64,000 bases of DNA. Source: Vulcanimicrobiota bacterium. Its GTDB lineage: Bacteria; Vulcanimicrobiota; Xenobia; Xenobiales; JADMJV01. The DNA is taken from NCBI GenBank assembly GCA_019637395.1, contig JAHBVR010000002.1, positions 69,495 to 133,494 of the forward strand, read 5' to 3'. Numbering within the stretch: the stretch's first letter is position 1; the number at the start of each line of letters is the position of its first letter. Made by a program: the position numbers and the translations under genes. The notes under the pieces are model-generated. The model did no database searches. It had not been told where the DNA came from and saw only the letters and a list, made by a program, of their open reading frames with translations. This document shows, piece by piece, positions 3,178-62,966 of this stretch.

Positions 3178-3765
3178 GTGGCTAAACCTCGGAAAGCCAT
3201 CGAAGCTCGGTTTCGACGCGGCAGCAATTTTCTCATCCTGATCGGCCTGCTTTCAGCGCTCTGCAATAGTCTGCTCTATTTCGGTTTCACCTGGAAGCCC
3301 GTGACTATCTTCTGTCTGGCCATTCCAGTGGTATTGGATACGGTGGTGCGCGTAGTCGATCCCCGTCTGTGGGGCCAGGAGCTACATTATTACTGCTATA
3401 TTTTTGGCCTGATTCTCTCCGGTCTCTTCGTCTTGTTGGGCATGGCCTCCAAGTTCACTTCGCACACGGGCACTTTTTTCAAGCTCGGTTCTTTCATGCA
3501 CGGCTTGAAACGGTTGGGCAGCTGGGCCGGCGGAGCGCAATTGATGGGGTCTCGCCTCTTTTATTTCGTCGGTATCGTGCTCTATATTCTCGATGGTGTG
3601 CTGGCGCTGGTGATGGAAAATTTCCTGCGCGCCAATTTCGACCAGTTGCGTATCATGGTTTTGATGAACCTGGGCTTTCACTGTTTCGTGCTGGTGTTTT
3701 TGCTACACGGCTTCGTGGCCGGATTGGAATCTGAGGCGGCCGCCAGTCCGCCCGCCAATGCTTGA
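3178..3765 (+). CDS. Hypothetical polytopic membrane protein
   Basis: AGGAGG at 3164-3169 lies 8 nt before the in-frame GTG at 3178. At least five hydrophobic helices; no recognisable motif. Confidence 0.5.
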   Translation: MAKPRKAIEARFRRGSNFLILIGLLSALCNSLLYFGFTWKPVTIFCLAIPVVLDTVVRVVDPRLWGQELHYYCYIFGLILSGLFVLLGMASKFTSHTGTFFKLGSFMHGLKRLGSWAGGAQLMGSRLFYFVGIVLYILDGVLALVMENFLRANFDQLRIMVLMNLGFHCFVLVFLLHGFVAGLESEAAASPPANA

Positions 3766-5560
3766 TTCCGATACGCTCCCGGTAGACCACGCCGGAAACA
3801 GCGAGAAGGGGGGCAAGTCGAAGGGCCTGCCTGTCTGGTTGGTCGGGATGGTGGCTCCACCGGTCGTGGTCACCGCCGGGGCCTATTTTCAATCCCACGG
3901 GGACAGCCATAGAACGCTGATCGGCCTGGCCGCGGGCGTTGGGCTCTCGATTGCCTGGGTCGGCTGGCTGGCTCTGCGAGATGCGCGCCGCGTCAGCACG
4001 GCTCGTCGGGTGCAGGATCAGATCGAAGACGCCTGGACGGCTCATGCCAAGGGAGAGTCCCAGCGGGCCGAGGAGCTGCTCAAAGACTGCGTCAAGCTGG
4101 CCGGCGCGCGGTTGGGTCGCTATGACCTGGTGACGCTGGCCTGTCTGCACACGCTGGGAAATCTTTACCGACTGCGCGAGGACCATGCCGGGGCCAATTC
4201 TTGCTACGAGCAGGCCCTGCCCATTTATCAGAAGACTCTGCCCCGCCTGCACCCGGCACGCGCTTCTTTTCATACCCATCGAGCCCTGACCTATATCACC
4301 ATGGACAATCTGGACAAGGCTCTGGAGGAAGCTCGGGAATCGGTGGCCCTGTATCGCGAAATGGGCGGCCAGGACTTTGGACTGGCCGAAGCCTGCTCGC
4401 TGGTTGGGAGACTGGCCAACCAGCGCGACGACAATGAACTGGCGCTCAAGTCCTACTCAGAAGCGCTGGAGCTGGTGCGTAAACGACTTCCCATTCAGGA
4501 TCCGCGAGTGCTCACCGCTATGGGCAATCTGTGCCGCATTTACGTCAAGCTGCGCATGTTCCAGGAATCGGAGAAATACCTGGTGGAGCTGGTGCATGAA
4601 CATCGCGCCCAGCCTGACTTGCAGCCGGAGAATTTTCTGGATGCGTTGCTGGATCTGGCCTGGACGCGCCTGGAACAAGGACGCAGCGAGGAATGCGAGC
4701 CGCTCTTGGTAGAGGCCCTGGAGATCTTGCAGAACCGGGTGGGTCCGCGCGAGCGCCCTCTGCAGAAAGTCCTGGACGCTTACCGGCGTATCACCAAAGA
4801 TTCGGTGGCGGCGGCGGCCACCACCCACGGGCTGGTTAATTTGATGCTGGTGTTCTGCGGCGAGCGCGAGAAGCTGCGCCAGACGCTGGAGAAGTTTCCC
4901 CTGTGGATGAATGCGCGCGACGCCACCGGCTGGGGACCCTTGCACTGGGCGGCTTTTGTGGGCCGAGACGATATCGTGCGCTGGCTGCTGCAAAAAGGAG
5001 CCGAGATCAGCCGCCCCGAGGACCGGGTCAGTCCGCTGCATGTGGCCGCCGCCTGGGGCAAGCGCGAGTCCTTGCTCGAGTTGCTCGATGCCGGAGGCGA
5101 CTTCAACGCCCGTGATCCGCGCGGCTGGACGCCGGTTTTCTGGTGTTCTTTCTCGGGCCGCACCAAGATACTGGAGACCATCATCAAGCGCGGAGCCGAC
5201 GTCAATCTGCGCGACGATCACGGCCGCACACCCCTGCACATTGCCGCCGAGCAAGGTCATTTGAGCACGGTGGCGGCACTGGTGGGCAGCGGGGCCCGTC
5301 TGAGCGCCAAGGAGTCCGAGTGCGGCCGCAGCCCGCTGCATCTGGCCGCTCGGCGCGGCAATCTGGCTGTCTGTGAGTGCCTGGTCTACAACCAGGGAGA
5401 CCTGGGAGCTCGCGATGAGAGCGGCAAGAATCCTGTCGATCTGGCCCGCGAGGGCCAGCATCGCCTGCTCCATCGAGTGCTGCGCCGCCTGACCCGGGCC
5501 GGCCTGGGCCGCTCTCAGCTGGGAGCAGGTCCGCGCCGCGTTTCTTTGGATGCGCCTTAG
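3758..5560 (+). CDS. Membrane-anchored TPR plus ankyrin-repeat protein
   Basis: Two N-terminal TM helices, central TPR-like helical repeats (LGNLYRLREDHAGANSCYEQALPIYQK and similar), and four or five C-terminal ANK repeats (GWTPVFW..., GRTPLHIAAEQGH..., GRSPLHLAARRGN...). Confidence 0.75.
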   Translation: MLDSDTLPVDHAGNSEKGGKSKGLPVWLVGMVAPPVVVTAGAYFQSHGDSHRTLIGLAAGVGLSIAWVGWLALRDARRVSTARRVQDQIEDAWTAHAKGESQRAEELLKDCVKLAGARLGRYDLVTLACLHTLGNLYRLREDHAGANSCYEQALPIYQKTLPRLHPARASFHTHRALTYITMDNLDKALEEARESVALYREMGGQDFGLAEACSLVGRLANQRDDNELALKSYSEALELVRKRLPIQDPRVLTAMGNLCRIYVKLRMFQESEKYLVELVHEHRAQPDLQPENFLDALLDLAWTRLEQGRSEECEPLLVEALEILQNRVGPRERPLQKVLDAYRRITKDSVAAAATTHGLVNLMLVFCGEREKLRQTLEKFPLWMNARDATGWGPLHWAAFVGRDDIVRWLLQKGAEISRPEDRVSPLHVAAAWGKRESLLELLDAGGDFNARDPRGWTPVFWCSFSGRTKILETIIKRGADVNLRDDHGRTPLHIAAEQGHLSTVAALVGSGARLSAKESECGRSPLHLAARRGNLAVCECLVYNQGDLGARDESGKNPVDLAREGQHRLLHRVLRRLTRAGLGRSQLGAGPRRVSLDAP

Positions 5561-11029: not shown

Positions 11030-11684
11030 GTTCGGGGGTTTTCGGGGCCAGCAGGCGGCAGGCCAGCCAGCACAGTCCCACCACCAGCGCGTCGGCCACC
11101 AGCACGTAAAAAGGCCAGGGACCGAGGTAGTCGAGCGGTGAGCCGGCTGGCGGCTTGAGCATCAGGTAACCGTAATTCCAGTTGAACAGGTAATCCAATC
11201 CGCCCACCAGCAAAATCCACAGTTGCAGGCCCCAGGCCGCGCCTTTCCAGGAGTCGCGGCTCAGCCGATAGCCCTGGCCGCCCTGCAGGTGGGCCAGCAC
11301 CACGAAGATCAGGCCGTGTCCCCAGAAGAATTCGAAGTAGCGGTAGTGGGGAAAATCATGGGGCAGATCGGGAGTGATCAGGGCCCAGATGCTGCTGGTC
11401 CATGAGAGCAGATGGATGCACTCGAAAGTGATCTGACTGCGCCGCTCACAGAGCAGGTAACAGGCCGCGAAAAGAATGAAGTCGCACAGGTGGAGCGGCA
11501 GGCAGGTGGCCAACGAGAGCTGGCTCCAGCGCCAACTGTAGGCGATCACCATATAAGCGATCAAATTGAGCAGCAGAAAGCGGTCGATCGCTTTCCGCGA
11601 CTGCCTTCCCCAGCGGCTCAGCAGCAGGCAAGCCAGCCAGATTCCGGCCAGCCCGGCCAGGTGCGTCAACCCAAACCAGCTCAT
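11016..11684 (-). CDS. Hypothetical integral membrane protein (about 6 TM helices)
   Basis: Likely start is the internal Met (MSWFGLTHLAGLAG...) at 11684; the longer ORF-track N-terminus runs into the REP-like repeat. Multiple hydrophobic segments. Confidence 0.5.
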   Translation of the reverse strand: MSWFGLTHLAGLAGIWLACLLLSRWGRQSRKAIDRFLLLNLIAYMVIAYSWRWSQLSLATCLPLHLCDFILFAACYLLCERRSQITFECIHLLSWTSSIWALITPDLPHDFPHYRYFEFFWGHGLIFVVLAHLQGGQGYRLSRDSWKGAAWGLQLWILLVGGLDYLFNWNYGYLMLKPPAGSPLDYLGPWPFYVLVADALVVGLCWLACRLLAPKTPEPIPL

Positions 11685-11724: not shown

Positions 11725-11805
11725 TCCGGCCTGCCACAGGTGATGGCCCCTGGGTCTGGCCGCCACGGATGGTGTGTCTTGCCGACCACAGGTGGTGGCA
11801 GCCCC
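11725..11805. repeat. REP-like palindromic intergenic element, copy A (core GCCGCCACGGATGGTGTGTCTTGCCGACCACAGGTGGTGG)
   Basis: Shares the ACCAC-RG-GTGGT palindromic core and flanks with the elements at 15686-15925 and 46209-46325. Confidence 0.7.
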
Positions 11806-11843
11806 GGGCAGGACACCCCTTTCCTGATCGGAAAGGGCTATCC

Positions 11844-13501: not shown

Positions 13502-14191
13502 ATGTCTGTAGCACCTTTGTCGGGACGTCGTGTCATGATCGATCCCGGTCACGGCGGCCGTTTCCCGGGCGCCATCGGACCCGCCGGCACCAAAGAAAAA
13601 GACGTGGTTCTGGCCGTTTCCAAGATCCTGGAAGCCGATCTGATCGAAATGGGCGCCGAAGTTCGCATGACCCGCTCGACCGACGTGGAAGTCGCCCCGG
13701 GAGCCAGCCTGAGCGGAGATCTCAAAGCCCGCGTAGATCTGGCCAATCAATGGCCCGCTGACCTGTTCATTTCGGTCCACGCCAATTCGGCCGAGAATGC
13801 CGCCGCCAAGGGCACGGAAACATACCACGCCGTGCAGGCCAGTGACCGCTCCAAGACGCTGGCCAAGTTGCTGCAGAAAAGCATGATCGATGACGTGGGG
13901 CTGACCGACCGCGGTGTCAAGGCTTCCAACTTCTATGTGATCAAGAACACCCGGATGCCCGCCTCCTTGGTGGAACTCGGCTTCCTCTCCAACCCGGGCG
14001 AGGAGCAGGTGCTGGCCAATCCCGCTATGCAACTCGTCTTCGGCCACGCGCTTTCTAAGGGCGTAGCCGACTACTTCGCGGTGGAAGCTCACGTGAAACC
14101 GGACGCACCCGTCCAGGTCCCGGGCGACGACCCGGGCGATCTGCTGGCTCCGGGCGACCCCGCTGAGATGCTTTTCGCCGGGAGGGTCTGA
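13502..14191 (+). CDS. N-acetylmuramoyl-L-alanine amidase (Amidase_3 family)
   Basis: IDPGHGG, FISVHANS and TETYH motifs. Confidence 0.8.
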   Translation: MSVAPLSGRRVMIDPGHGGRFPGAIGPAGTKEKDVVLAVSKILEADLIEMGAEVRMTRSTDVEVAPGASLSGDLKARVDLANQWPADLFISVHANSAENAAAKGTETYHAVQASDRSKTLAKLLQKSMIDDVGLTDRGVKASNFYVIKNTRMPASLVELGFLSNPGEEQVLANPAMQLVFGHALSKGVADYFAVEAHVKPDAPVQVPGDDPGDLLAPGDPAEMLFAGRV

Positions 14192-15669
14192 TGCGCGTCG
14201 CTGACGCTCCCAGGCTGAGTTTGCCCGCCCGAGTCGCGCGCCCGCGCGCGTCCAAGGTCGAGCAGCCGGTGGATCAGGTGGAATTGTCTGACCTGGTGGA
14301 AGTCAAGCACCGCCGGGAGTTGCGCGGCGCCTGGGTGGCCAGCGTGTGGAACATCAATTTCCCCAGCAGCTCCAATCTGGATGCCGAGACGCAGAAGCGC
14401 GAGATGCGCCAGATGCTCGACCGTCTCAAGGAATGCGGTTTTAATTCCGTGTTCTTCCAGGTTCGTCCGGAGGGAGACGCGCTTTATCGCTCCGAGCTGG
14501 AGCCGATGAGTCACTACCTGACCGGCAAACAGGGCCAGGACCCGGGCTACGACCCGCTGGCCTATATGGTCGAACAGGCCCATGAGCGTAACCTGGAGGT
14601 GCACGCCTGGCTCAACCCTTATCGGGCCAGTTCCTCGCTGCGCACCGAGCAGGTGGCTCCCCACATCGCCGTGGAGCATCCCGAGCATGTCCACCCCTAC
14701 GATACCACCAAATGGATGGATCCGGGTGCCGAGGTGGTGCGCCAGAAGCTGGTCGACGTTTGCCGTGACATTACCAAGCGCTACGACGTGGACGGAATTC
14801 ACTTCGACGACTACTTCTATCCTTATCCTAAGGACGGCCTCGAGTTTCCCGATCAGAAAACCTACGCCGCCTATCAGGCGGCCGGTGGCAAGCTGGCCAG
14901 AGACGACTGGCGCCGGGAGAACGTCAATCGGGCCGTGCGCGACGTGCAGGCGGCCGTACGCGAAGAAAAGGACTACGTGCGCTTCGGGATTTCTCCCTTC
15001 GGCTTGCCGGCCCCGGACAAGCCGGAAGGCACCTCGGGCTTCAATCAGTATGAGGGCATCTACGCCGACACCCAGAAATGGATGGACGAAGGTTGGGTAG
15101 ACTATCTGGCACCGCAGCTCTACTGGCGCACCGACCAACCCAAGCAGGCTTACGATAAGCTCGTCAACTGGTGGGCCGATCACAGCCAGGAAGGGCGCTA
15201 CATTTTCGCCGGCAACGACCTGCGCGCGCTGGGCACCAATCCCAAGTGGAACGTGGCCGAGTATCGCAAGCAGTTGCAGCTCTCTCGAGCCAAGCATCCC
15301 GAAGGCTCACAGGGTAATATCTGGTGGAACGTGGGACCGCTTCTGGAGAACCGGCAGAACATCAACAGCGTTTTTAAACAGGAGTTTTACCGCGAACCGG
15401 CTCTGACGCCCGCCCTTTCAACGGCCAAAAACCAGCAGGTCAGCGCTCCTGCGCTGACGCAATCCGGGCGCAAGGTGCGCATGACTCACCAGGACGCCGC
15501 TCCGCTCAAGGCCTGGACGGTCTACCGGCAGGTCGGCGAGGAGTGGAAACTCGATCGCGTGCTACCCGGCCAGCAGACGGAAGTGGAACTGTCGGCGGGA
15601 CAATGGGCCATCGCCGCTGCCAGTAAGTCGGGCGTGGAAAGCAAAGGTGTGCGCGTAACCGTGGCCTGA
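14191..15669 (+). CDS. YddW-like glycoside-hydrolase-like (GHL10) protein
   Basis: RGAWVASVWNINFP...GFNSVFFQVRPEGDALYRS...EVHAWLNPYRA motifs of the YddW/GHL10 family. 1-nt overlap with the amidase stop. Confidence 0.7.
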   Translation: MRVADAPRLSLPARVARPRASKVEQPVDQVELSDLVEVKHRRELRGAWVASVWNINFPSSSNLDAETQKREMRQMLDRLKECGFNSVFFQVRPEGDALYRSELEPMSHYLTGKQGQDPGYDPLAYMVEQAHERNLEVHAWLNPYRASSSLRTEQVAPHIAVEHPEHVHPYDTTKWMDPGAEVVRQKLVDVCRDITKRYDVDGIHFDDYFYPYPKDGLEFPDQKTYAAYQAAGGKLARDDWRRENVNRAVRDVQAAVREEKDYVRFGISPFGLPAPDKPEGTSGFNQYEGIYADTQKWMDEGWVDYLAPQLYWRTDQPKQAYDKLVNWWADHSQEGRYIFAGNDLRALGTNPKWNVAEYRKQLQLSRAKHPEGSQGNIWWNVGPLLENRQNINSVFKQEFYREPALTPALSTAKNQQVSAPALTQSGRKVRMTHQDAAPLKAWTVYRQVGEEWKLDRVLPGQQTEVELSAGQWAIAAASKSGVESKGVRVTVA

Positions 15670-15685
15670 ACGCTCGGTTTCAGTT

Positions 15686-15925
15686 GGTGTGTAATGCCGA
15701 CCACGGGTGGTGGCATCCGGTCTGGGGGGCCCGACTTGCCAACCTGGCGGTAACAATTACCGCGGCCTGGCAAGTCTCGTGGTTTCGGAGTGCCGCCACA
15801 GGTGGTGTGTCTTGCTTACCACAGGTGGTGGCCTCCGTCGAGAGCCCGACTTGCCGACCTGGCGGCAATAATTACCGCGGCCTGGCAAGTCTCGCGGTTT
15901 GGGAGTGCCGGCACAGATGGTGGCG
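15686..15925. repeat. Two tandem ~118-bp copies of the REP-like element, each with an internal imperfect hairpin (GACTTGCCAACCTGGCGG-N9-CCGCGGCCTGGCAAGTC) and the ACCACAGGTGGTGG core
   Basis: Direct comparison of 15686-15803 with 15804-15921 shows about 85% identity. The element fills the convergent intergenic space, and all six frames are open across it in the ORF track. Confidence 0.8.
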
Positions 15926-15936
15926 CTCCGGGTCGG

Positions 15937-16134
15937 CTAGCGGACTTTGAGTCCCACAAAAAAGCCGGCGGTCAGTCCCACCAGGCTGGGACTGAGCTGG
16001 GCCAGCATGGCCTGCAGCCACTGGCCGGCACCGCGGCTGCCTTGCTCGATGCCTTCAGAGACCTGCTGCCAGTGCACCGTGATCCAGCCCTGTTGGGCCA
16101 GAAAATAGAGGCCGATCAGCACCAGGCCCAGCAT
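15937..16134 (-). CDS. Small hydrophobic protein (65 aa), possible glycine-zipper membrane peptide
   Basis: ORF with TM-like segments (MLGLVLIGLYFLAQQGW...GLTAGFFVGL). Confidence 0.3.
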   Translation of the reverse strand: MLGLVLIGLYFLAQQGWITVHWQQVSEGIEQGSRGAGQWLQAMLAQLSPSLVGLTAGFFVGLKVR

Positions 16135-30120: not shown

Positions 30121-30408
30121 TTATTTATCACAACTCTCTTTGAGCGTCTTGCCGGGCTTGAAAACGGGGTAGTTCTTGGCGGGAACCTTAATCGTTTTGC
30201 CGGTGGCCGGGTTGCGAGCTTCGCGCTCTTCGCGCTTGCGGGCGAAGAAAGATCCGAAGCCGGGGATCACGAGCTTGTCTCCCGCCTTCAGTTGATTTAC
30301 GATCAGGCCTTTTTCTGCGTCGAACAGCGCATCCACAACATCCGCGGCCTTGGCCTGGGACAGGTCGGTATGCTTGGCCAATTCTTTGATCAACTCGGTT
30401 TTGTTCAC
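30121..30408 (-). CDS. hup: HU/IHF-family nucleoid-associated DNA-binding protein
   Basis: GTG start (rc of 30406-30408) preceded by GGGAGA. MNKTELIKELAK...KLVIPGFGSFFARKREEREARNPATGKTIKVPAKNYPVFKPGK matches the HU fold. Confidence 0.8.
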   Translation of the reverse strand: MNKTELIKELAKHTDLSQAKAADVVDALFDAEKGLIVNQLKAGDKLVIPGFGSFFARKREEREARNPATGKTIKVPAKNYPVFKPGKTLKESCDK

Positions 30409-30547
30409 GGGGGGATTCTCCCTTTCAACGAAATACTTGGTGTTGCCCACGTAACACCGGTGCAGGCGCTCAGGTTAAAGCAACCTCCAGGCAACTCCTG
30501 CTCCCTGGTGGTTTGTTAACAAATGTAGCCAAATTGTTAACAGAAAG

Positions 30548-33352: not shown

Positions 33353-36300
33353 ATGATTTTATGGGAGACCTACTTCGAATCGGCTCAGCAAGCGCTGGCT
33401 GAGGGCGACGACGCCAAGGCGGCCGAGCTTTTTGCTTCCGCTTTCGAGGAGGTCGAGTCCGAAAGTGTGCGCGATGATCGCTGGTTGCGTACGTTGTTGG
33501 GCTGGTCCAAAAGTCTGACCCGCCAGGGCAATTACGACCAGGCCACGGAAGTGCTCCAGGTTGACCCGGCGGAGCTGGCCGCCTGTCCAGCGGACTTACA
33601 ATTGGATTTGCAGGCCACCCTGGCCCAACTACAGCAGGCCAAGGGGGACAGCGCCGCCGAGCTGAACAGTTGGGCCAATTGGTACGGGGCTCTGAACGGA
33701 GCCAGTGAAGCCCGCTTGCCTCACCTGCGCCGGGCCGTGCAGTTGGCTCAAGAATTGCAGGCGGACTGGATGAGCGGGGCGCGGGAGCTGCTCTACAGTT
33801 GGTCGGTGGAGTTGTTGGGACCCGATCACCCGGAGACCTTGGCCGCGGCTCAGCACCAGCTCGATAGTTACCTGGCCGAAAAGGATTGGGCTCGCGCTGA
33901 GCCGCTGCTGCGTGCTCAACTGGCGCTGAACGAGAAAGATCGGTCCGCCTGGCTCAAGACGCAAGGTTTATTAGCTCTGGCCCTGCGCTCTCAGGGCAAA
34001 GCCGAAGCGGCCTGGCTCGCTTATCGAGAAATTTTGCGCGCTCAGCCGCTGGAACACGAAGAGCATTTGGAGGTGCTTCGTTGGGCCTATGAAGAGGCTC
34101 AGGGCGAGCAGGCTCAGGAAGTCGCGCTGGACTATCTGATTCGACTCACCCAGCCGCTGCCGGGCCATCTCGACCTCTACGACTATGTTATGGTGCTGGC
34201 CGAACCGGCGGATCAACTGCGCTTGCAGCAGGCTCGACTGGGCTGGGCCGAGGCCCTTCAGACCAGCCTGGAGATCCAGTTGGACTGGACCCACGAATTG
34301 GCGCTGGCTCTCGAGGCGCAGGGGCAGCCCGATCAGGCCAATTTTTTCTGGGATCGAATTTTGCTGGAGGGCCTTCCCAAGAAGGCGTTGGCCGACGCTC
34401 ACCTGCGCGCCGCGCGCAAGGCCGCCGCTCAGGGGCAGCCGGCCGGAGACCACTACCGGGCAGGCCTGATGGGGCGTCTGGAGCAGTCCCAGTGGGAAGA
34501 GTGCTGGCTGGAGGACGCCCTGCATTGGGCCCGGCTCGAGTTTGAGCAGAACAATCAGGTCACCGCCCTGGCGATTCTTACGCCGCTCCTCGGGCAGCTC
34601 GAAAAACGCTCCTTGGAAGGCACGGCTCCCTACTGTGAGGCTCTCTTTATGCGGGCTCGACTGGCCTACGCGCAAGAGCAGCCCACGGGCCAGGCGGACC
34701 TGGAGCAAGCTTTCGAACTCTGGCAGGCGGTCGAACAGCCGGCGGACCTGGGAGTCAAGATTTCCACCTTCGCTGTCGAACAGAGCATCGCGGCTCGTCA
34801 GCAGACGGACTACCAGCGCTGGGCTGCGCGTCTGGAAAAGCTGGGTGTGGAACCTCCGCCCTTCGAACGCGGCTTCGATGAGGAGGCGATGCAGGCTCTG
34901 CATCACTCGGGAGAGTGGGTCCGGCTGGAACAAGAACTGCGCGAAGTTCTGCCCAAGCTGGGAGCGGAAAGCCCGGAGGAGCATTTTGTCGCCTACCTGT
35001 GGCTGGCCGAGAGCTTGGAGCAGCAGGGACGCTGGGAGGAGGCCTTGGAATTCCGCCAGCAATCTCAGCCCACTTTGGTGGAGCGGCTGGGTGCTGCCCA
35101 CGCGCTGGTTTTACGCGGTCAAATGCAGTTGGGTCAGTGCCTCAATGCCTTGAGCCGCTTCGCTGAAGGCGAACGGGTCCTGGCCCAGTCGGTGCGCGCC
35201 CATGAGAAGGCCCTGGGGGCTGACAGCCTGGCCGTGGGCCGGGTATTGCTCGCTTTGGCCGAGAGTTTCCGGCTGCAAGGCAAGGATAACCTGATGGAGG
35301 CGGTTTCCGGCCGGGCTGTCGGCTTGCTGGAAAAACACTTGCCGGTGGGACACCCGGACCGTTTGCAGGCCAAGCGGGACCTGGTGCAGTGGATGATGGA
35401 TCAGGGCCGCTTTGGCGAAGCCCGCCAACAACTCCAGTTTATGGAGCAAGAAGAAGTTCAGGCTTTTGGCGCGGATCACCCCGAATTAGCGGTGACTCTC
35501 TCGCAATGGGCCAGCCTGGAAACGGCCGAGGGCGACTACGCGGCAGCCGAGGTCCACTACCGGCGCTCGTTGGACCTGTTCGAACGCGGTCTCGGGGATG
35601 CCCACCCGAACGTGGCCGCCACTCTCAACAACCTGGGACAGAACCTTTACCGACAGGCTCACTATGCTAAAGCGGCCAGCGTGCTGGAGCGGGCTTTGCA
35701 GATTTTTGACGCCCACGATGCCGGGCGCGTCTCGACCATGGTCAACCTGGGACTGGTCTGGCAGGCTCAACAAGAACATGCTAAAGCCCAACAATGGTTG
35801 GAAGAAGCCTTGCGGCTGAGCCAGGAGTGGTTGGGCGAAGACGACCTGGAGGCCGCCTTCTGCTGCTTTACGCTGGCGGAAGTGCTGGCTCATCAGGGAC
35901 AAATGGCGGAAGCCCGCCAGTTTGCGCAGAGGGCTCTGGACATTCGCGAAAGACGCCTGGGAGCGTTGCATCCGGAAACCTCCACCAGCCAGGCTCAGGT
36001 GAGTAATCTGCTGATGCGTGACGGCCGGGAGGCCGACGCCATCCCCCTGGTGGAAGGCTCCCTGAAAATTCAGGCTCAGGCCCTCGGGGAAGACCATCCC
36101 GAATTGATCCCTACCTATTCAACCTTGGGCCGACTCTACATGGCCGATCAGCAGTGGGATAAGGCGGAGGAGACCCTGCTCAAGGCCATTGGTCTGATCC
36201 ATCGATCGACCGCCCAGGTCAGCGCCGAACTGGCTCAGAGAGTGGCCGAGTTGGGCGAACTTCGGGCTTCTCAAGGAGATTTGGAGCAGGCCATCGGGTT

Positions 36301-39300
36301 CTCGGCCAAAGCGGTGGAGATTCTGGTGGAGGCGTTGGGAACTCAGCACGAGGCCACCGATCCGGTCATGCTCAGACTGGCCAAGCTCTACCTGCAGGCC
36401 GCCCGCTATAAAGAAGCCGAGGCTTGCTTCAAGCGGGTGCTGGACCAGCGCACCCAGCGCCTGGGCGGCGACGACCCTGGTGTGGCTCTGGTCTGGCTGG
36501 AACTGGCCGAACTCCAATTGGCCCAGAACCGCCAGGTGCTGGCCGAAACCTTGGGCAAAAAGGCCCTGGATCTGATTCAGCGACGCTTTGGTGAAGAGCA
36601 TGTGCAACTGCGTCCAGCTCTGGAATTCCTGGCCCGGCACGCCTCCCACCACGGCAACGAATCTCAGGTTGCGGCCTATGAGCAGCGACTGGCCGCTCTG
36701 GTGGAGCCGTCCCTCGAGGATACTCCCTCAACCACCACCTCGCCGGTCGTGGCCGTTCCCTTACCCGACACCGAAGGGCAGGCGACCGTCACGCCGGAGT
36801 CAGGCCCTTCTGAGGTCGAAGGAGAGACCGTTCCTGCAGAAGATGAGCCGTCCGTGGAGCCACCTTCCATTGAGGCGGAGGCTGTCCACCTCGAGACGCC
36901 GGCGCCTACCGAAAGGGACGCGCCCGCCGAGGCGGTTGTTGAAGTGGCCGTGCCTGACGAGGCTGCCGGCCTGGTCGAGGATGTGCCTTCGGTTTCGGAA
37001 GCCATCGAGGAATCTGGGGCAGAGCCGGCGACCGCGGTCATGGCCGAGGCTGTTACCGAAACGGTTGCTGAAGCGGCGGTGGAACCCGTGGTTGCCGAGG
37101 CACCTGAGGTGGTGCCGGTGGTGCCTGAGCCGGAGCCGGAACCGCTCAGTCCGGAGGAACAGGCGGCCAGGGCGGCGCTCGAAAAGAACTGGGTTTATGT
37201 CAGGGAGTTGTTGACGCCGCTGGTCGCCGCGCGCAGCGGAGTGGACCTGGCCGAGATATTGCGCCGTCTGTCCCTGGCCGAGCGCCACCTGGGCAATCGC
37301 ACTCAGGCCGAGCGGCTGCTCTTGCAATCGATTACCTTGTGGTCTCAGGAATACGGTGAGAACCATCCGGAACTGGCCGAAAGCATGGGAGACCTGGCCG
37401 AGGTCAGTTTCGAGATGGGTAAGTTGGAGCAGGCGGAAGGCTTGCTGCGCCGGGCCACCGAGATTCAGGTTCGCCTGCACGGCACCGACCATGCCGCGAT
37501 GATTCCCTGGCTGTTGCGCCTGGGCCGGATCTATTTGCCCCACAAGGCCAGCCAGGCCCTGCCGCCGCTGCAACGGGCCCTGGGCTTGGCCCAGAGCCGC
37601 CTCAACGCTCAGGATCCGGTGCAGGCGGAGATTCTCTGGTCTCTGGCTCTGGCCCAAGAGCAGGCGGGTGACTTTGAGGAAGCCACGGTTCTCCTGCGCC
37701 GACGCCTGAGTTTTCCGGATGGCGAAGAAGCCCTCGAAGTCCAACTGAAGCTCGCCCAAATGCTGCTGCGGGCTGGACAAATCGAGGCGGCCACGCAGAT
37801 TCTGCATAAGTTGGAAGTGCACTTGCCGGTTCCCGGTCCCGAGATTGAGGAACAGGTAAAGGCGCTGGTGGGCAACATTCTGGTCTTGGAAGACCGCCTC
37901 GAGGAAGCCGAGCCGCGTTTGCTGGAGGCCCTGCAGATGCGCAGCCAGCGTCTCAGCACGCAGCATCCGGATTTGCGCCCCATCCTGTTCAATCTGGCCA
38001 AACTCTATAGCGCCCGCGAAGCTTACCAGCAGGTGGCTATTTTCGCCCAGCAGGCCCTGGAGTTAACCCCCGAAAGCGAGACCGAGACCAGGCTGCAGCT
38101 CTATTCTCAGTTGGCGCCCGCCCTGATGCACTTGGACCGGCACTCGGAAGCGGAGGTTCTGTATCGCACCTGGGCGGATTTGATCGTGGCCCAACAGGGG
38201 GAAAATCATCCGGCCCAACTGCCGGCCCTGCAAGCCCTTTCCAAGCTGCTGCAGCGCCGCGGCGACTCGATGGCGGCCCAAGAAATGCGCGAGCAGGCCT
38301 GGCAGATCCTCAGCCAGAGCCCGCAGGTCTCGGAAGCCGAGTTTCTGTTGCCTTTGGAGGACCTGGCCCGCGGCGCCATCGAGCAGGCTGCTTGGGATAA
38401 GGCTGAAGCCTGGCTCCGCCGCGCCTACGCCATCGCGGAGAAACAGGATGGACTGGCGGCGGCGCGCCTGGCTTATGCTCTGGGCGAAGTCTTCCGCTCG
38501 ACCGGCCGCCTGGCCGAAGCCGAGACCGCCATTCGCCGCTCGCTGGAATTCCGCCAGACGGCGCTGGGGGCCGAGCATGTGGAAACGCTCCGGTCCCTGC
38601 AGTCCCTGGCCGAGGTTTACTCGGCCCAGAATCGGTTTGAAGCTGCTCAATCAATGCTCAGCCGCTGTTTGGATGCGGGTAAGCAGACGTTGGGCGATCA
38701 GCATCCCGACCTGGCGGGTTTTCATCGCGCCCTGGGCGTACTCTGGTCCCACACCGGCCGGATGGACGAAGCCGAGAAGTCCTTGTTGGAGGCGCTCGCT
38801 CTGGTCGAGAATCTCTCCCCGCCCCATCCCGAACTGGTGCCTACCTTGGAAGCGCTCGGCCAATACTATCAACGCCTCGACCAGTTGGCCCAGGCCGCTC
38901 CCTTTTACAGTCGGGCTCTGGATTCAATGGAGCAGTCGTTGGGACCAAGCCATCTGGCCGTGGCCGATTCTCTGTTACAACTGGGCGAGTTACAGCAGCG
39001 TCAGGGGAATTTCGAGGAAGCCGAGAAGCTCTATCGCCGCTGTCTGGAGATTCGCAGTCAGAAACTGGCGGCGCAAAGCCCTCGTCTGGCTCAGGTCCGC
39101 CAGGTTCTGGCCCAACTGCTGCAAAAGCAGGGGCATACGGCTGCCGCCCGCGAGTTGTTCGAGCAGGCTCTGGCCGCTCTCTGGTCGGAACAAGGCGGTG
39201 AGAGTTCGCAGGTGGCGGAATGCCTCGAAGGTCTTGGGCTGCTGGAGTTGCAGCAGTCCCTTTATGCCGAATCGGAAGCTCGCCTGCAAAAGGCTCTGAC

Positions 39301-40588
39301 CATCCGGGAGAAGGAACCGGCTGACCGCCAGGGCCCCACCATGAATACCCACCAATTGCTGGCCCGCGTCTTTCTGGAAAGCCGCCGGCCCGAGATGGCC
39401 GAGCGCTCTCTGAAGCGAGCTCTGGAGATCGCCCAGAAAGCCTTCGGAGGAGACCGTCCTGAAGTAGCGGCCTGTCTCGAGCAGTTGGGTGGATTGTATT
39501 TGAGTCAGGGACGCTATGTGGCGGCCGAAGCCCTGTTTGATCGCGCCCTGGAAATACGCGACCGGAGCCAGCAGCCGCAGCATCCCGATTCGGGCTTTTG
39601 TTTGCTGGGTCTGGCTCAGATTTATCTGGCCCAGAATCAATTGACACAGGCCTGGCAAACGGCCGAGACGGCCAAGAAAATTTACGACGCGCTGCCCCAG
39701 CAGCCTAACCTGGATGGTGCCCAGGCTCTGTATCTGATGGCCGAAACGCTGCGCCTGCAGGGGCGCTTCAAGGAGTCCGAGGCGCTTTATCAGCGCTGCC
39801 TGGAGATTCGCAACAAGTTGTTGGGCAATGACCACCCCGAAGTGCAGCGCGGTTTGCACGGTCTGGGTGTGTCGCTGATGGATCAGGGCAAAGCTCCCCA
39901 GGCCGAGCGCATTTTTACCCACGCTCTGAGACTGCTGGAGGCCAAGTTGGGCAACGATCACCCCGATCTGGCCAACAGTCTGCACAGTTTGGGACTATTG
40001 CATCGCAGCCAGGGTCGCGGCGCCACCGCTGAACTGCATCTGAAACGAGCTTTGGAACTGCGCACCAAGGGATTGGGTAACGAGCACCCGGATCTGGCGG
40101 CCAGCTTGCAGGCCATGGCTCAGTTACATTTGGATCAGCGCAACGACCAGGCGGCTGAGGCGTTATTGAAACAGGCCTTGAGCATTCGAGAGAAGGCTTT
40201 GCGCGCCGATCACCCGGCTCTGTCCGCGCTGTTGCTCTTGCTGGCCGGTCTTTACAAATCGCAGGAGCGCTTTTCCGAGGCCGAGCCCCGCTTGAAGCGC
40301 GTGCTCGATCAGCGCGAAAAGTTGCTGGGCACCCATCACCCGGATACTGCCGCCATCCTTCAGGAACTGGGCGAACTCTATCTACTGAACGGCCAGCAAC
40401 AGCAGGCGGAAACCTTGCTCAAACGGGCCCTGGATATTTATGAAAAACGCCTGGGCCAGGAACATCCTACGATTTTGCCGTGCCTGCATCTGCTCTGGAA
40501 GGCTTACGACGCCCAAAAACGCACCCAGGAAGCGGCCGGCATCCGCTCGCGCATCCAACTCCTCGAAGTTACTCGCCCTGCTGGTTAA
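33353..40588 (+). CDS. Giant tetratricopeptide-repeat protein (2411 aa; KLC/TPR_12-type repeats throughout, central acidic P/E/V/A-rich linker)
   Basis: Dozens of LG..HP..A..L..LA.LY...GR..EAE.L..RAL.I.E..LG units. No Walker A or other enzymatic motif seen. Low-complexity segment at roughly 36700-37160. Confidence 0.85.
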   Translation: MILWETYFESAQQALAEGDDAKAAELFASAFEEVESESVRDDRWLRTLLGWSKSLTRQGNYDQATEVLQVDPAELAACPADLQLDLQATLAQLQQAKGDSAAELNSWANWYGALNGASEARLPHLRRAVQLAQELQADWMSGARELLYSWSVELLGPDHPETLAAAQHQLDSYLAEKDWARAEPLLRAQLALNEKDRSAWLKTQGLLALALRSQGKAEAAWLAYREILRAQPLEHEEHLEVLRWAYEEAQGEQAQEVALDYLIRLTQPLPGHLDLYDYVMVLAEPADQLRLQQARLGWAEALQTSLEIQLDWTHELALALEAQGQPDQANFFWDRILLEGLPKKALADAHLRAARKAAAQGQPAGDHYRAGLMGRLEQSQWEECWLEDALHWARLEFEQNNQVTALAILTPLLGQLEKRSLEGTAPYCEALFMRARLAYAQEQPTGQADLEQAFELWQAVEQPADLGVKISTFAVEQSIAARQQTDYQRWAARLEKLGVEPPPFERGFDEEAMQALHHSGEWVRLEQELREVLPKLGAESPEEHFVAYLWLAESLEQQGRWEEALEFRQQSQPTLVERLGAAHALVLRGQMQLGQCLNALSRFAEGERVLAQSVRAHEKALGADSLAVGRVLLALAESFRLQGKDNLMEAVSGRAVGLLEKHLPVGHPDRLQAKRDLVQWMMDQGRFGEARQQLQFMEQEEVQAFGADHPELAVTLSQWASLETAEGDYAAAEVHYRRSLDLFERGLGDAHPNVAATLNNLGQNLYRQAHYAKAASVLERALQIFDAHDAGRVSTMVNLGLVWQAQQEHAKAQQWLEEALRLSQEWLGEDDLEAAFCCFTLAEVLAHQGQMAEARQFAQRALDIRERRLGALHPETSTSQAQVSNLLMRDGREADAIPLVEGSLKIQAQALGEDHPELIPTYSTLGRLYMADQQWDKAEETLLKAIGLIHRSTAQVSAELAQRVAELGELRASQGDLEQAIGFSAKAVEILVEALGTQHEATDPVMLRLAKLYLQAARYKEAEACFKRVLDQRTQRLGGDDPGVALVWLELAELQLAQNRQVLAETLGKKALDLIQRRFGEEHVQLRPALEFLARHASHHGNESQVAAYEQRLAALVEPSLEDTPSTTTSPVVAVPLPDTEGQATVTPESGPSEVEGETVPAEDEPSVEPPSIEAEAVHLETPAPTERDAPAEAVVEVAVPDEAAGLVEDVPSVSEAIEESGAEPATAVMAEAVTETVAEAAVEPVVAEAPEVVPVVPEPEPEPLSPEEQAARAALEKNWVYVRELLTPLVAARSGVDLAEILRRLSLAERHLGNRTQAERLLLQSITLWSQEYGENHPELAESMGDLAEVSFEMGKLEQAEGLLRRATEIQVRLHGTDHAAMIPWLLRLGRIYLPHKASQALPPLQRALGLAQSRLNAQDPVQAEILWSLALAQEQAGDFEEATVLLRRRLSFPDGEEALEVQLKLAQMLLRAGQIEAATQILHKLEVHLPVPGPEIEEQVKALVGNILVLEDRLEEAEPRLLEALQMRSQRLSTQHPDLRPILFNLAKLYSAREAYQQVAIFAQQALELTPESETETRLQLYSQLAPALMHLDRHSEAEVLYRTWADLIVAQQGENHPAQLPALQALSKLLQRRGDSMAAQEMREQAWQILSQSPQVSEAEFLLPLEDLARGAIEQAAWDKAEAWLRRAYAIAEKQDGLAAARLAYALGEVFRSTGRLAEAETAIRRSLEFRQTALGAEHVETLRSLQSLAEVYSAQNRFEAAQSMLSRCLDAGKQTLGDQHPDLAGFHRALGVLWSHTGRMDEAEKSLLEALALVENLSPPHPELVPTLEALGQYYQRLDQLAQAAPFYSRALDSMEQSLGPSHLAVADSLLQLGELQQRQGNFEEAEKLYRRCLEIRSQKLAAQSPRLAQVRQVLAQLLQKQGHTAAARELFEQALAALWSEQGGESSQVAECLEGLGLLELQQSLYAESEARLQKALTIREKEPADRQGPTMNTHQLLARVFLESRRPEMAERSLKRALEIAQKAFGGDRPEVAACLEQLGGLYLSQGRYVAAEALFDRALEIRDRSQQPQHPDSGFCLLGLAQIYLAQNQLTQAWQTAETAKKIYDALPQQPNLDGAQALYLMAETLRLQGRFKESEALYQRCLEIRNKLLGNDHPEVQRGLHGLGVSLMDQGKAPQAERIFTHALRLLEAKLGNDHPDLANSLHSLGLLHRSQGRGATAELHLKRALELRTKGLGNEHPDLAASLQAMAQLHLDQRNDQAAEALLKQALSIREKALRADHPALSALLLLLAGLYKSQERFSEAEPRLKRVLDQREKLLGTHHPDTAAILQELGELYLLNGQQQQAETLLKRALDIYEKRLGQEHPTILPCLHLLWKAYDAQKRTQEAAGIRSRIQLLEVTRPAG

Positions 40589-44809: not shown

Positions 44810-46203
<1,394 letters not shown>

Positions 46204-46208
46204 ACCTG

Positions 46209-46325
46209 ACTCAGTCCGGCAAGTCGGCCCCCCGTGGTAGGTGATACACACCACCCGTGGCGGCACTCCGGCCTCCCGGCTGGCGGACGAAGGTCGTGAC
46301 CGGGTGGTAACATGTCGGCAACAAA
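46209..46325. repeat. REP-like element, copy C, in inverse orientation
   Basis: The reverse complement contains GGAGTGCCGCCACGGGTGGTGTGTATCACCTACCACGGGG...CCGACTTGCC, matching the core at 15780-15850. Confidence 0.65.
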
Positions 46326-46437
46326 CATGTTAACTCGTTCGCTCTGAGATTAACGGCTCGTTCATACTGGACGGGCCGAATTTATCTGGCCTTGCCGGAT
46401 AAAACGTAAACTCATCTCATAAGCAGTCGCGAAAGAG

Positions 46438-46992
46438 GTGAGCAAAATGAGCAAGGTCGCCACGAACCACAAAGCCCACGCCCACAAACCGAGTCACGGC
46501 CACAAACCCAAGCCGAAGCCCGGCGCTCACAAGCCCAACAAGCCGGCGGCCAACATCACCAATTTCAATCAGCAGGCAATGGATCAGCAGATGCTCATCT
46601 GGCAGATGCGGCAGGCCCAGATGATTCAGCAGTTCAACGCCGGGCTGGCCGGTCTCCAGCAGCAGCTACAGCAAGGCGGAGTGCCAAATCCGCAACAGGT
46701 CGCCGCTCAGGCCCAGGCCGAACAGCAGGCTCAGGCCCAACAGGCTGCCTTCACTGCCTATCAGACCCAGGCGATTGCGCAATTTCAGGCCACCGGTGCC
46801 GCCCTTCAGGGGACTTTCTCGGCCAGCATGCAGCAGGGTTTTGGTTCCCTCGAGTCCTCGCTGGGCGGATTTCTCAACCAGGGCTTCTCTCCGGCTCAGT
46901 TCAACGGCGGGGCCTACGCGCTGAGCGCCAGCTCCAGCCTCTTCTCCGGCCCCATCGCCGTGCCCACTTTTTACGGCAACCGCCGTTATTAA
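46438..46992 (+). CDS. Hypothetical low-complexity protein (His/Lys/Pro-rich N-terminus, Gln/Ala-rich core)
   Basis: AGAGGTG RBS precedes the ATG; an AT-richer promoter-like region lies upstream; a strong terminator lies downstream. No signal peptide. Confidence 0.5.
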   Translation: MSKMSKVATNHKAHAHKPSHGHKPKPKPGAHKPNKPAANITNFNQQAMDQQMLIWQMRQAQMIQQFNAGLAGLQQQLQQGGVPNPQQVAAQAQAEQQAQAQQAAFTAYQTQAIAQFQATGAALQGTFSASMQQGFGSLESSLGGFLNQGFSPAQFNGGAYALSASSSLFSGPIAVPTFYGNRRY

Positions 46993-62485: not shown

Positions 62486-62966
62486 GGGTTAGCAACGCTT
62501 GCCAAATTTCCGGCAACGGCCGCCGCCTCGCGCCGGGGTTGCCACTTTCCTGGCAACTCTTGCCAAATTTCCGGCAACAGCCACCGTCTCGCGCCGGGGT
62601 TGCCACTTCCTTGGCAACGCTTGCCACATTTCCGGCAACAGCCACCGTCTCGCGCCGGGGTTGCCACTTCCTTGGCAACGCTTGCCAAATTTCCGACAAC
62701 GGCCGCCGCCCGGCGCCGGGGCTTGCCACTTTCCTGGCAATTCTTGCCAAATTTCCGACAACGGCCGCCGCCTGAGGCCGGGGTTGCCACTTTCTTGGCA
62801 ACTCTTGCCAAATTTCCGGCAACGGCCGCCACCCGGCGCCGGGGGTTGCCACTTTTCTGGCAACTCTTGCCAAATTTCCGACAACGGCCGCCGCCTGAGG
62901 CCGGGGTTGCCACTTTCTTGGCAACGCTTGCCAAGTTTCCGGCAACTGTCGCCCGGGCCGGCACTT
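62486..62966. repeat. Tandem array of about 7.5 units of a 61-bp repeat, each unit containing two TTGCC-N8-GGCAA palindromes centred 21 bp apart
   Basis: Units such as GGTTGCCACTTTCCTGGCAACTCTTGCCAAATTTCCGGCAACAGCCACCGTCTCGCGCCGG repeat head-to-tail. Half-sites are conserved while N8 spacers vary. All six frames are open across the array. Confidence 0.85.

Follow-up and report, generated by a model that had tools for sequence, protein, structure and literature searches.

We describe a family of small hairpin repeats at three loci (A, B, and C) of the window, as we call the whole stretch of 64,000 nucleotides that was analyzed. Alignment of the filled sites with the orthologous sites of relatives shows that, on the evidence of sequence, copies inserted into three or more gene ends or spacers once this species had split from its sequenced congeners. 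The explanation that we favor, with moderate confidence, is that these copies belong to a young, lineage-specific family of small noncoding mosaic insertion elements, of the REP/BIME, REPIN, or MITE kind, that are moved in trans.

RESULTS

The repeat family is real and nonrandom

When up to one mismatch was allowed, the core sequence CCACRGGTGGTG matched the window eight times, against 0.8 matches expected, and none of 100 shuffles reached eight. Seven of the eight matches fell inside loci A, B, and C, and repeat finders returned both direct and inverted matches between the three loci. BLAST within the window aligned B with A over 41 nt (90% identity; E = 5.5e-8) and B with C, in inverted orientation, over 25 nt (96% identity; E = 1.3e-5). 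A covariance model of H1, one of the two hairpin modules described below, was searched against 161 kb and matched A, B, and C only, with E values of 1e-12 to 1e-15. We conclude that the repeat family is real and nonrandom.

The regions of A and B, which were the ones compared between assemblies, were 100% identical across the Logan assemblies of four SRA runs, with A present in one contig, B in three, and part of B in a fourth. A second NCBI MAG (GCA_026129085.1) also spans locus A. Independent assemblies thus agree fully over A and B, and the repeat is not an assembly artifact.

A preliminary description of this DNA had claimed three loci, and all three exist close to where it placed them, but comparison with empty sites moves their boundaries to approximately 11734 to 11807 for A, 15670 to 15936 for B, and 46192 to 46296 or 46308 for C. 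Its account of B as a tandem array of 118-bp units that are about 85% identical held up well. Tandem Repeats Finder reported 2.1 copies with a period of 115 and 85% matches at 15681 to 15922, and alignment of unit against unit gave 84% identity, such that the units are 115 to 118 bp long and 84 to 85% identical. The copy at C does lie on the minus strand, as the reported inversion implied, and the gene contexts are as varied as had been said, being divergent at A, convergent at B, and codirectional at C.

Two hairpin modules make up the repeat unit

The family is modular, with the hairpins H1 and H2 and short linkers making up the unit of 115 to 118 bp; two or three intact copies of each module are present. 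H1, which is approximately 50 nt long, consists of two inverted 15-nt arms separated by an 11-nt loop, and each arm contains the near-palindrome CCACRGGTGG. As DNA, it reads CGGAG-T-GCCGCCAC-AG-GTGGT, followed by the 11-nt loop and ACCAC-AG-GTGGTGGC-CTCCG. H1 can alternatively be read as two direct subrepeats of 23 bp, each beginning CCACAGGTGGTG, and the number of these subrepeats varies: A has three, B1 has two, and the short copy that ends B has one. H2 is a hairpin of 44 to 45 nt (GACTTGCC...GGCAAGTC) with the sequence GACTTGCCA..GCGGTAA-CAA-TTACCGC..TGGCAAGTC.

Locus B (15670 to 15936, plus strand) takes up the whole 267-bp spacer between the convergent genes GHL10 (14191 to 15669, plus strand) and FUN14 (15937 to 16134, minus strand). 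It contains, in order, a partial H1, H2, H1, H2, and a short H1, amounting to 2.3 units of 115 to 118 bp. The best-preserved H1 (15786 to 15837, plus strand; as RNA, CGGAG-U-GCCGCCAC-AG-GUGGU, loop, ACCAC-AG-GUGGUGGC-CUCCG) gave a predicted RNA fold of −35.6 kcal/mol (z = −6.6), with −27.6 kcal/mol (z = −3.6) for the opposite strand; the corresponding z scores for folding as DNA were −5.3 and −3.0. The first copy of H2 (15733 to 15776, plus strand; GACTTGCCA...TGGCAAGTC, with an inner stem of GCGGTAA/TTACCGC) scored 85 bits with the H2 covariance model, CM R1, and gave z scores for its two strands of −4.4 and −4.0 as RNA and −5.1 and −5.0 as DNA. The second (15848 to 15891, plus strand) scored 83.9 bits, and its minus strand was the more stable (−30.5 versus −22.1 kcal/mol), which is the opposite bias to that of H1. 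The short H1 (15902 to 15929, plus strand) is a single 23-bp subrepeat, GGAGUGCCG...GGCGCUCC, that folded with a z score of −3.6.

The modules of locus B therefore fold far better than shuffled sequences, both as RNA and as DNA and on both strands. Folding also bore out the imperfect hairpin of the preliminary description, which is the H2 module (GACTTGCC...GGCAAGTC), with z scores of −4 to −5 on both strands. The sequences of A and C folded no better than shuffled sequence (z of about −0.3 to −1.9), and A and C are decayed copies. The strand bias within B is inconsistent, H1 favoring the plus strand and the second copy of H2 the minus strand. These opposed preferences, together with the folding on both strands, fit an element that acts at the level of DNA rather than a strand-specific RNA. 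A search of Rfam 15 returned nothing at the gathering threshold across the whole window and nothing at an E value of 1 or below at 15600 to 16000; a riboswitch or small RNA was rejected for lack of an Rfam match.

Filled and empty sites in relatives

We compared the window with DNA from three congeners: L026 (GCA_017307785.1; approximately 80% nucleotide identity), L031 (GCA_022842865.1; approximately 84%, the closest), and L034 (an ENA/NCBI MAG; approximately 82%). A further relative, P0001, was compared by gene coordinates only. The orthologous sites of A and C were empty in the congeners, and that of B was empty in two relatives and occupied by an unrelated tandem array in the closest, L031. 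Filled sites in the window and empty ones in relatives, as mobile insertion would produce, were thus found at A, B, and C. Because the elements are missing at orthologous sites in congeneric MAGs, the copies are lineage-specific insertions and not conserved regulatory sites. A conserved transcription factor operator was rejected as an explanation on the grounds of that absence.

No copy of H1 or H2 was found in about 75 kb of four relatives; the models were run on approximately 65 kb of L024, L026, and L034, and motif and covariance model scans were run on 21.5 kb of L031. The proposed lineage specificity of the family thus agrees with its absence from the relatives examined. The preliminary description had held that restriction to three loci in the genome, combined with a lack of conservation in relatives, would speak for chance similarity or local duplication, and the second half of that combination, the lack of conservation, is what we observed.

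Locus A (11734 to 11807, plus strand) is made up of three H1 subrepeats of 23 to 26 bp, with cores at 11734, 11763, and 11786, and lacks H2. It lies between two divergent genes, a TMEM164-like gene on the minus strand (start at about 11685) and a gene for an Fe/Mn superoxide dismutase (SOD; from 11844, plus strand). The spacer between them measures 158 bp in the window, versus 71 bp in L031 and 60 bp in both L026 and the P0001 relative. The extra ~75 bp is exactly the H1 material, and the H1 motif was not found in the site A spacers of L031 and L026.

A separate inverted repeat, CCCTTTCC-TGAT-CGGAAAGGG (11817 to 11838), adjoins locus A directly upstream of the SOD start codon. This hairpin overlaps the likely SOD ribosome-binding site and has been kept in the window, L031, and L026, whereas the rest of the spacer has not. 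A translational role, or one as an operator, is possible.

At site B, neither L026 nor the P0001 relative has the array, and in both, GHL10 and FUN14 overlap by 14 nt. By blastn, the junction at 11469|11470 of L026 corresponds to 15656|15938 of the window. A single 14-nt segment of L026 (approximately 11469 to 11482; TTAGCGTATCTTGA) serves the ends of both genes. In the window and in L031, that segment is duplicated, with one copy at each gene end and the spacer between the copies; the left copy in the window lies at 15656 to 15669 (plus strand; TAACCGTGGCCTGA), and the right copy lies at 15937 to 15950 (CTAGCGGACTTTGA). Since the duplication, each copy has been subject to its own coding constraint, and the two now differ in sequence. 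As L031 carries the same duplication, the duplication and the spacer are older than the split between L031 and the window species. The H1 and H2 sequences in the spacer are, judging from these alignments, specific to the window species.

The site B spacer of L031 is 726 bp long and contains an unrelated array of 26 to 27 units of 21/28 bp (GCGCYTACSGGTTCCGGC...; L031 11511 to 12186; GCA_022842865.1, JALHOV010000016.1). This array was not found elsewhere in the 21 kb of L031 that was read, and nhmmer detected no significant relationship between it and the B array. The spacer between GHL10 and FUN14 may simply be prone to repeat growth.

Locus C (46192 to 46308, minus strand) is an inverted and decayed copy about one unit long that lies after glcD and ahead of a codirectional gene. 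It comprises a short H2 (stem 46196 to 46202/46220 to 46226), an H1 (46228 to 46269) with a truncated right arm, and a degenerate tail. Comparison with L034 revealed a clean insertion of at least 105 bp (46192 to 46296) between GATCTC and the TGA of the ancestral glcD end; L034 reads GATCTC-TGA-CGCG at this site, with nothing in between. The first 12 nt of the insertion (46192 to 46203, plus strand) supply Ser-Thr-Thr codons and a new TGA stop, so that the C insertion lengthened glcD by three codons and exchanged its stop codon. The GlcD protein accordingly ends in ...KVFDLSTT in the window, versus ...KVFDL or one residue more in all 14 of the relatives listed. The claim that all copies are intergenic thus needs amendment. 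All of them do lie in spacers, but the arrival of C gave glcD its final 12 nt, which comprise three codons and the stop.

No target site duplication was found at the C junction (GATCTC^...^TGA), and the only similarity between the two ends of C is a weak CGAC(C)TT(C)G match belonging to the H2 arms. At approximately 46308 to 46337 of the window, upstream of a gene for a Q-rich 181-aa hypothetical protein (46447 to 46992), there is a palindrome, TAACATGTyGGCAACAAACATGTTAAC, that is almost identical in L034, even though the coding DNA is approximately 82% identical. This palindrome is probably an operator.

Distribution of the family

No further copy was found in an additional 17.3 kb to the left of the window in the same genome, so that the 81 kb read from this genome (−17.3 kb to +64 kb relative to the window) contains three loci. 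Simple extrapolation gives approximately 40 to 500 loci per 5-Mb genome, a figure that carries a bias, since this repeat was the reason for choosing the window. Among 185,579 GTDB species representatives, the pattern GCCGCCACRGRTGGTGTGT gave 15 single matches in unrelated taxa, all of which lacked the downstream ACCAC core and are therefore attributable to chance. If the source genome is among these representatives with only the window masked, it would have no other exact H1 19-mer genome-wide, and the absence of GTDB matches would argue against a large family.

In JGI metagenome contigs, a 28-nt pattern matching four window copies gave four chance matches only. Viral contigs had no match to the H1 pattern and only chance matches to two H2 arm patterns, none with both arms, and blastn searches of plasmid and phage collections found no family member. 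A concatenated six-frame translation of the B array matched none of 5.8 billion proteins and revealed no spurious open reading frames (ORFs). Across the 81 kb, no Y1_Tnp, RAYT, or other transposase domain was found in the tested ORFs and the listed called genes. At the feet of the hairpins, GTAG or CTAC was absent from A and B, and a single, nonconserved GTAG was present in C.

The window itself is ordinary chromosome, with genes for a PTS system, SOD, an amidase, GHL10, an ABC transporter, TsaBDE, a GlcD-like protein, FtsY, MutS2, and PBP1. Exact protein matches (MBX3166304.1 and MCW5870481.1; 526-kb contig; locus tags KF760_*) assign it to NCBI MAGs that bear the name Candidatus Eremiobacteraeota bacterium, and homologues at a greater distance carry the labels Candidatus Xenobia or Vulcanimicrobiota. 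It also contains an ORF of 2,411 aa (33353 to 40588, plus strand), whose 2,470-aa orthologue in L034 is a TPR repeat protein (TPR_12/TPR_NPHP3), and several Ank/TPR proteins (713 to 2242 and 3758 to 5560) that are unusual and unrelated to the repeat family. An integron attC origin of the repeats was rejected because the genes are housekeeping and syntenic.

Arrays resembling H2

An 88-aa ORF that runs through B was used in a HMMER search and matched P0208 (E = 2e-8), a singleton 283-aa NCBI "protein" encoded on a contig of 11,155 bp. P0208 consists of at least six 20-aa repeats (GGGGPSCRPGGKNYRELAS) that correspond to 60-nt units. Since it matches the translation of H2 in two reading frames, P0208 is a spurious ORF through tandem H2-like hairpins. 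The presence of such an array, of at least six units, in an unrelated NCBI contig implies that the H2 module exists outside this locus. P0208 was the sole foreign relative of the element that we found.

A second tandem array in the window (62492 to 62953, plus strand) has 7.5 units of 61 bp and occupies a 629-bp spacer extending from a cNMP-binding/MscS-like gene to a gene for a 237-aa hypothetical protein. A mini-hairpin in every unit (GCCGGGGTTGCCA..TGGCAAC.CT.G) is similar to the outer stem and flanking sequence of H2, and the unit contains two short inverted repeats, GTTGCCAC-N6-GGCAAC and CTTGCCAA-N8-GGCAAC. CM R1 matched every unit in register at 10 to 20 bits, scores that are weak and come from units that are not independent, and tblastn with P0208 also matched this array. 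These matches suggest that H2-like hairpins may recur in several types of array in this lineage and that the 61-bp array is possibly related to H2. All contigs of this strain end within the 61-bp array. A CRISPR array was rejected for both B and the 61-bp array because the whole unit is conserved (84 to 88%) and there are no unique spacers.

DISCUSSION

Origin of the family

Elements of this family inserted in either orientation at gene ends and in spacers, in this species only. After insertion, slippage gave rise to between one and three copies of the 23-bp subrepeat and between 1 and 2.3 copies of the unit, and copies also decayed by internal deletion. According to the explanation that we favor, the elements probably spread as folded single-stranded DNA, mobilized in trans by the product of a gene located elsewhere in the genome; the foremost candidate is a Y1 HUH transposase of the RAYT/IS200-IS605 type. 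Any influence on expression, whether through the new stop codon of glcD or the wider spacing of the SOD promoter region, would be a by-product of insertion and not the reason that the elements exist. With copies in differing orientations, at distances of 4 and 30 kb, the dispersal is more than tandem slippage could account for by itself. Against the mobile reading stands the lack of clear terminal inverted repeats, of a target site duplication, and of a GTAG head. The count of only three loci in 81 kb, the searches of collections and of translated proteins that yielded no family member, the lack of a transposase or RAYT domain in the ORFs tested and the called genes listed, and the different tandem array of the closest relative at site B also weigh against it.

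An origin in local repeat dynamics that involve no transposase is the main rival, though an unlikely one. Slippage would have built the array at B, and pieces of it would have been copied to A (4 kb away) and, inverted, to C (30 kb away) by ectopic gene conversion, template switching, or repair synthesis, in which case the family would be confined to this neighborhood. That the three loci lie within 35 kb of one another, with none in the extra 17 kb and no match in public collections, agrees with such confinement, and the numbers of subrepeats and units do vary as those of slippage products do. Other arrays also point in this direction, namely, the unrelated 27-copy array of 21/28 bp that the closest relative has in the same GHL10/FUN14 spacer and the intergenic 61-bp array elsewhere in the window. 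Slippage, however, would not readily yield three separate insertions, one of them inverted and another placed precisely at a stop codon. H2-like arrays are, moreover, present in a foreign contig, and the decayed copies at A and C imply events of different ages rather than a single rearrangement.

We regard as improbable a hairpin element system specific to Eremiobacterota, of which H1/H2 and the H2-like arrays (the 61-bp array of the window and that of P0208) would be the visible part and that would spread without the GTAG/RAYT chemistry of proteobacterial REPs. It could use another enzyme or template switching and could prefer exact gene ends (stop codons), rewriting C termini as in glcD.

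A role as selected cis-acting elements is also improbable. The CCACRGGTGG twins, 23 bp apart, would bind a dimeric protein, or the RNA hairpins would serve as 3′-end stabilizers, as terminators, or as insulators between convergent genes. The spacing of the palindromic cores by about two helical turns would suit such a protein, as would the HU/IHF family gene present in the window (30124 to 30450, minus strand; PF00216; E = 1e-28), and IHF binds some BIMEs in Escherichia coli. The strong hairpins in B, the position of B between convergent genes, and that of C directly after a stop codon would also suit a selected role. None of the relatives examined, nevertheless, has the elements at the orthologous sites, and yet regulatory palindromes close by have been conserved. 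A and C, in addition, fold no better than shuffles, and the family has no match in Rfam. The roles in termination, mRNA stability, and nucleoid protein binding that the preliminary description had put forward found no support, since there are no U tracts, terminator-like sites are not enriched (5 found versus 4.3 expected), element orientation differs between sites and keeps no consistent direction with respect to transcription, and the sites are not conserved; an intrinsic terminator was rejected for the lack of a U tract. A selected regulatory role is therefore unlikely.

Finally, chance similarity, for which it could be said that the genome is GC rich and that short GC-rich palindromes are common in such genomes, is ruled out by the shuffle statistics and E values, and an assembly artifact is countered by the matching A and B regions of independent assemblies, which leaves either with a negligible probability.

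For Proteobacteria and Firmicutes, much work has been done on small structured intergenic repeats; to our knowledge, from a literature search not aimed at exactly that point, none have been described in the candidate phylum Eremiobacterota/Vulcanimicrobiota. The three filled sites and the matching empty sites in congeners provide a clean natural experiment, in which one insertion altered the C terminus of a protein and its stop codon. If the family proves to be abundant genome-wide, it would offer a strain-typing marker, account for assembly breaks in MAGs of this lineage, and serve as a starting point for asking which enzyme moves hairpin elements that lack GTAG. If it is confined to these loci, it would be a local curiosity only.

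Comparison with known repeat systems

The REP/BIME-like signature attributed to these repeats stands in part. They do form a dispersed, mostly extragenic mosaic family of palindromes and hairpins that is inserted relative to sister species, but no conserved GTAG/CTAC is present at the hairpin feet. The REP, BIME, and REPIN elements of E. coli, Pseudomonas, and Stenotrophomonas, which are mobilized by RAYTs, are likewise short imperfect extragenic palindromes in mosaic clusters with linkers and variable numbers of tandem units, and the H1 arms and H2 fall within the class of short (20- to 40-nt) imperfect extragenic palindromes. The H1 inverted doublet, like a REPIN, forms a long hairpin, and REP/BIME copies, too, often lie just after stop codons or between convergent genes and form species-specific families. 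The alternating modular layout of H1 and H2, with its variable number of units, matches descriptions of BIMEs and REPINs (PMC2817692, PMC3333891, PMC3337134). The resemblance to their inverted doublets and alternating clusters with linkers is loose, however, in that two types of hairpin module alternate here, as opposed to one REP in alternating orientation. A conserved GTAG (GT[AG]G) or CTAC head is lacking at the hairpin feet of H1 and H2, and binding and cleavage by TnpA-REP need a GTAG tetranucleotide 5′ of the foot (PMC3333891). REPs also usually number more than 100 copies per genome, versus three loci in 81 kb here, with no RAYT seen in those 81 kb, and their hosts are Proteobacteria, in contrast to the uncultured Eremiobacterota (Xenobia-like) lineage studied here. 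Membership of the H1/H2 family in the REP/RAYT system is thus unproven.

The BOX elements of Streptococcus pneumoniae (boxA-boxB(n)-boxC; PMC3049150) resemble H1/H2 in being modular and intergenic, with a variable number of modules, a stable structure, and no transposase of their own. They are unrelated in sequence, and a genome carries more than 100 copies of them, each with terminal modules that are defined, whereas the termini of H1/H2 are undefined. MITEs and PATEs (Correia/NEMIS, ERIC, and IS200/IS605-derived elements) are, like the copies described here, small nonautonomous insertions of 100 to 270 bp with filled and empty sites that can reshape gene ends. H1/H2 differs from them in lacking convincing terminal inverted repeats and a target site duplication, the 14-nt duplication at B being older than the array, and in its tandem multimerization, which is not typical of MITEs. 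The H1/H2 repeats are, in sum, a family new in sequence, but the kind of bacterial element to which they belong is already well known.
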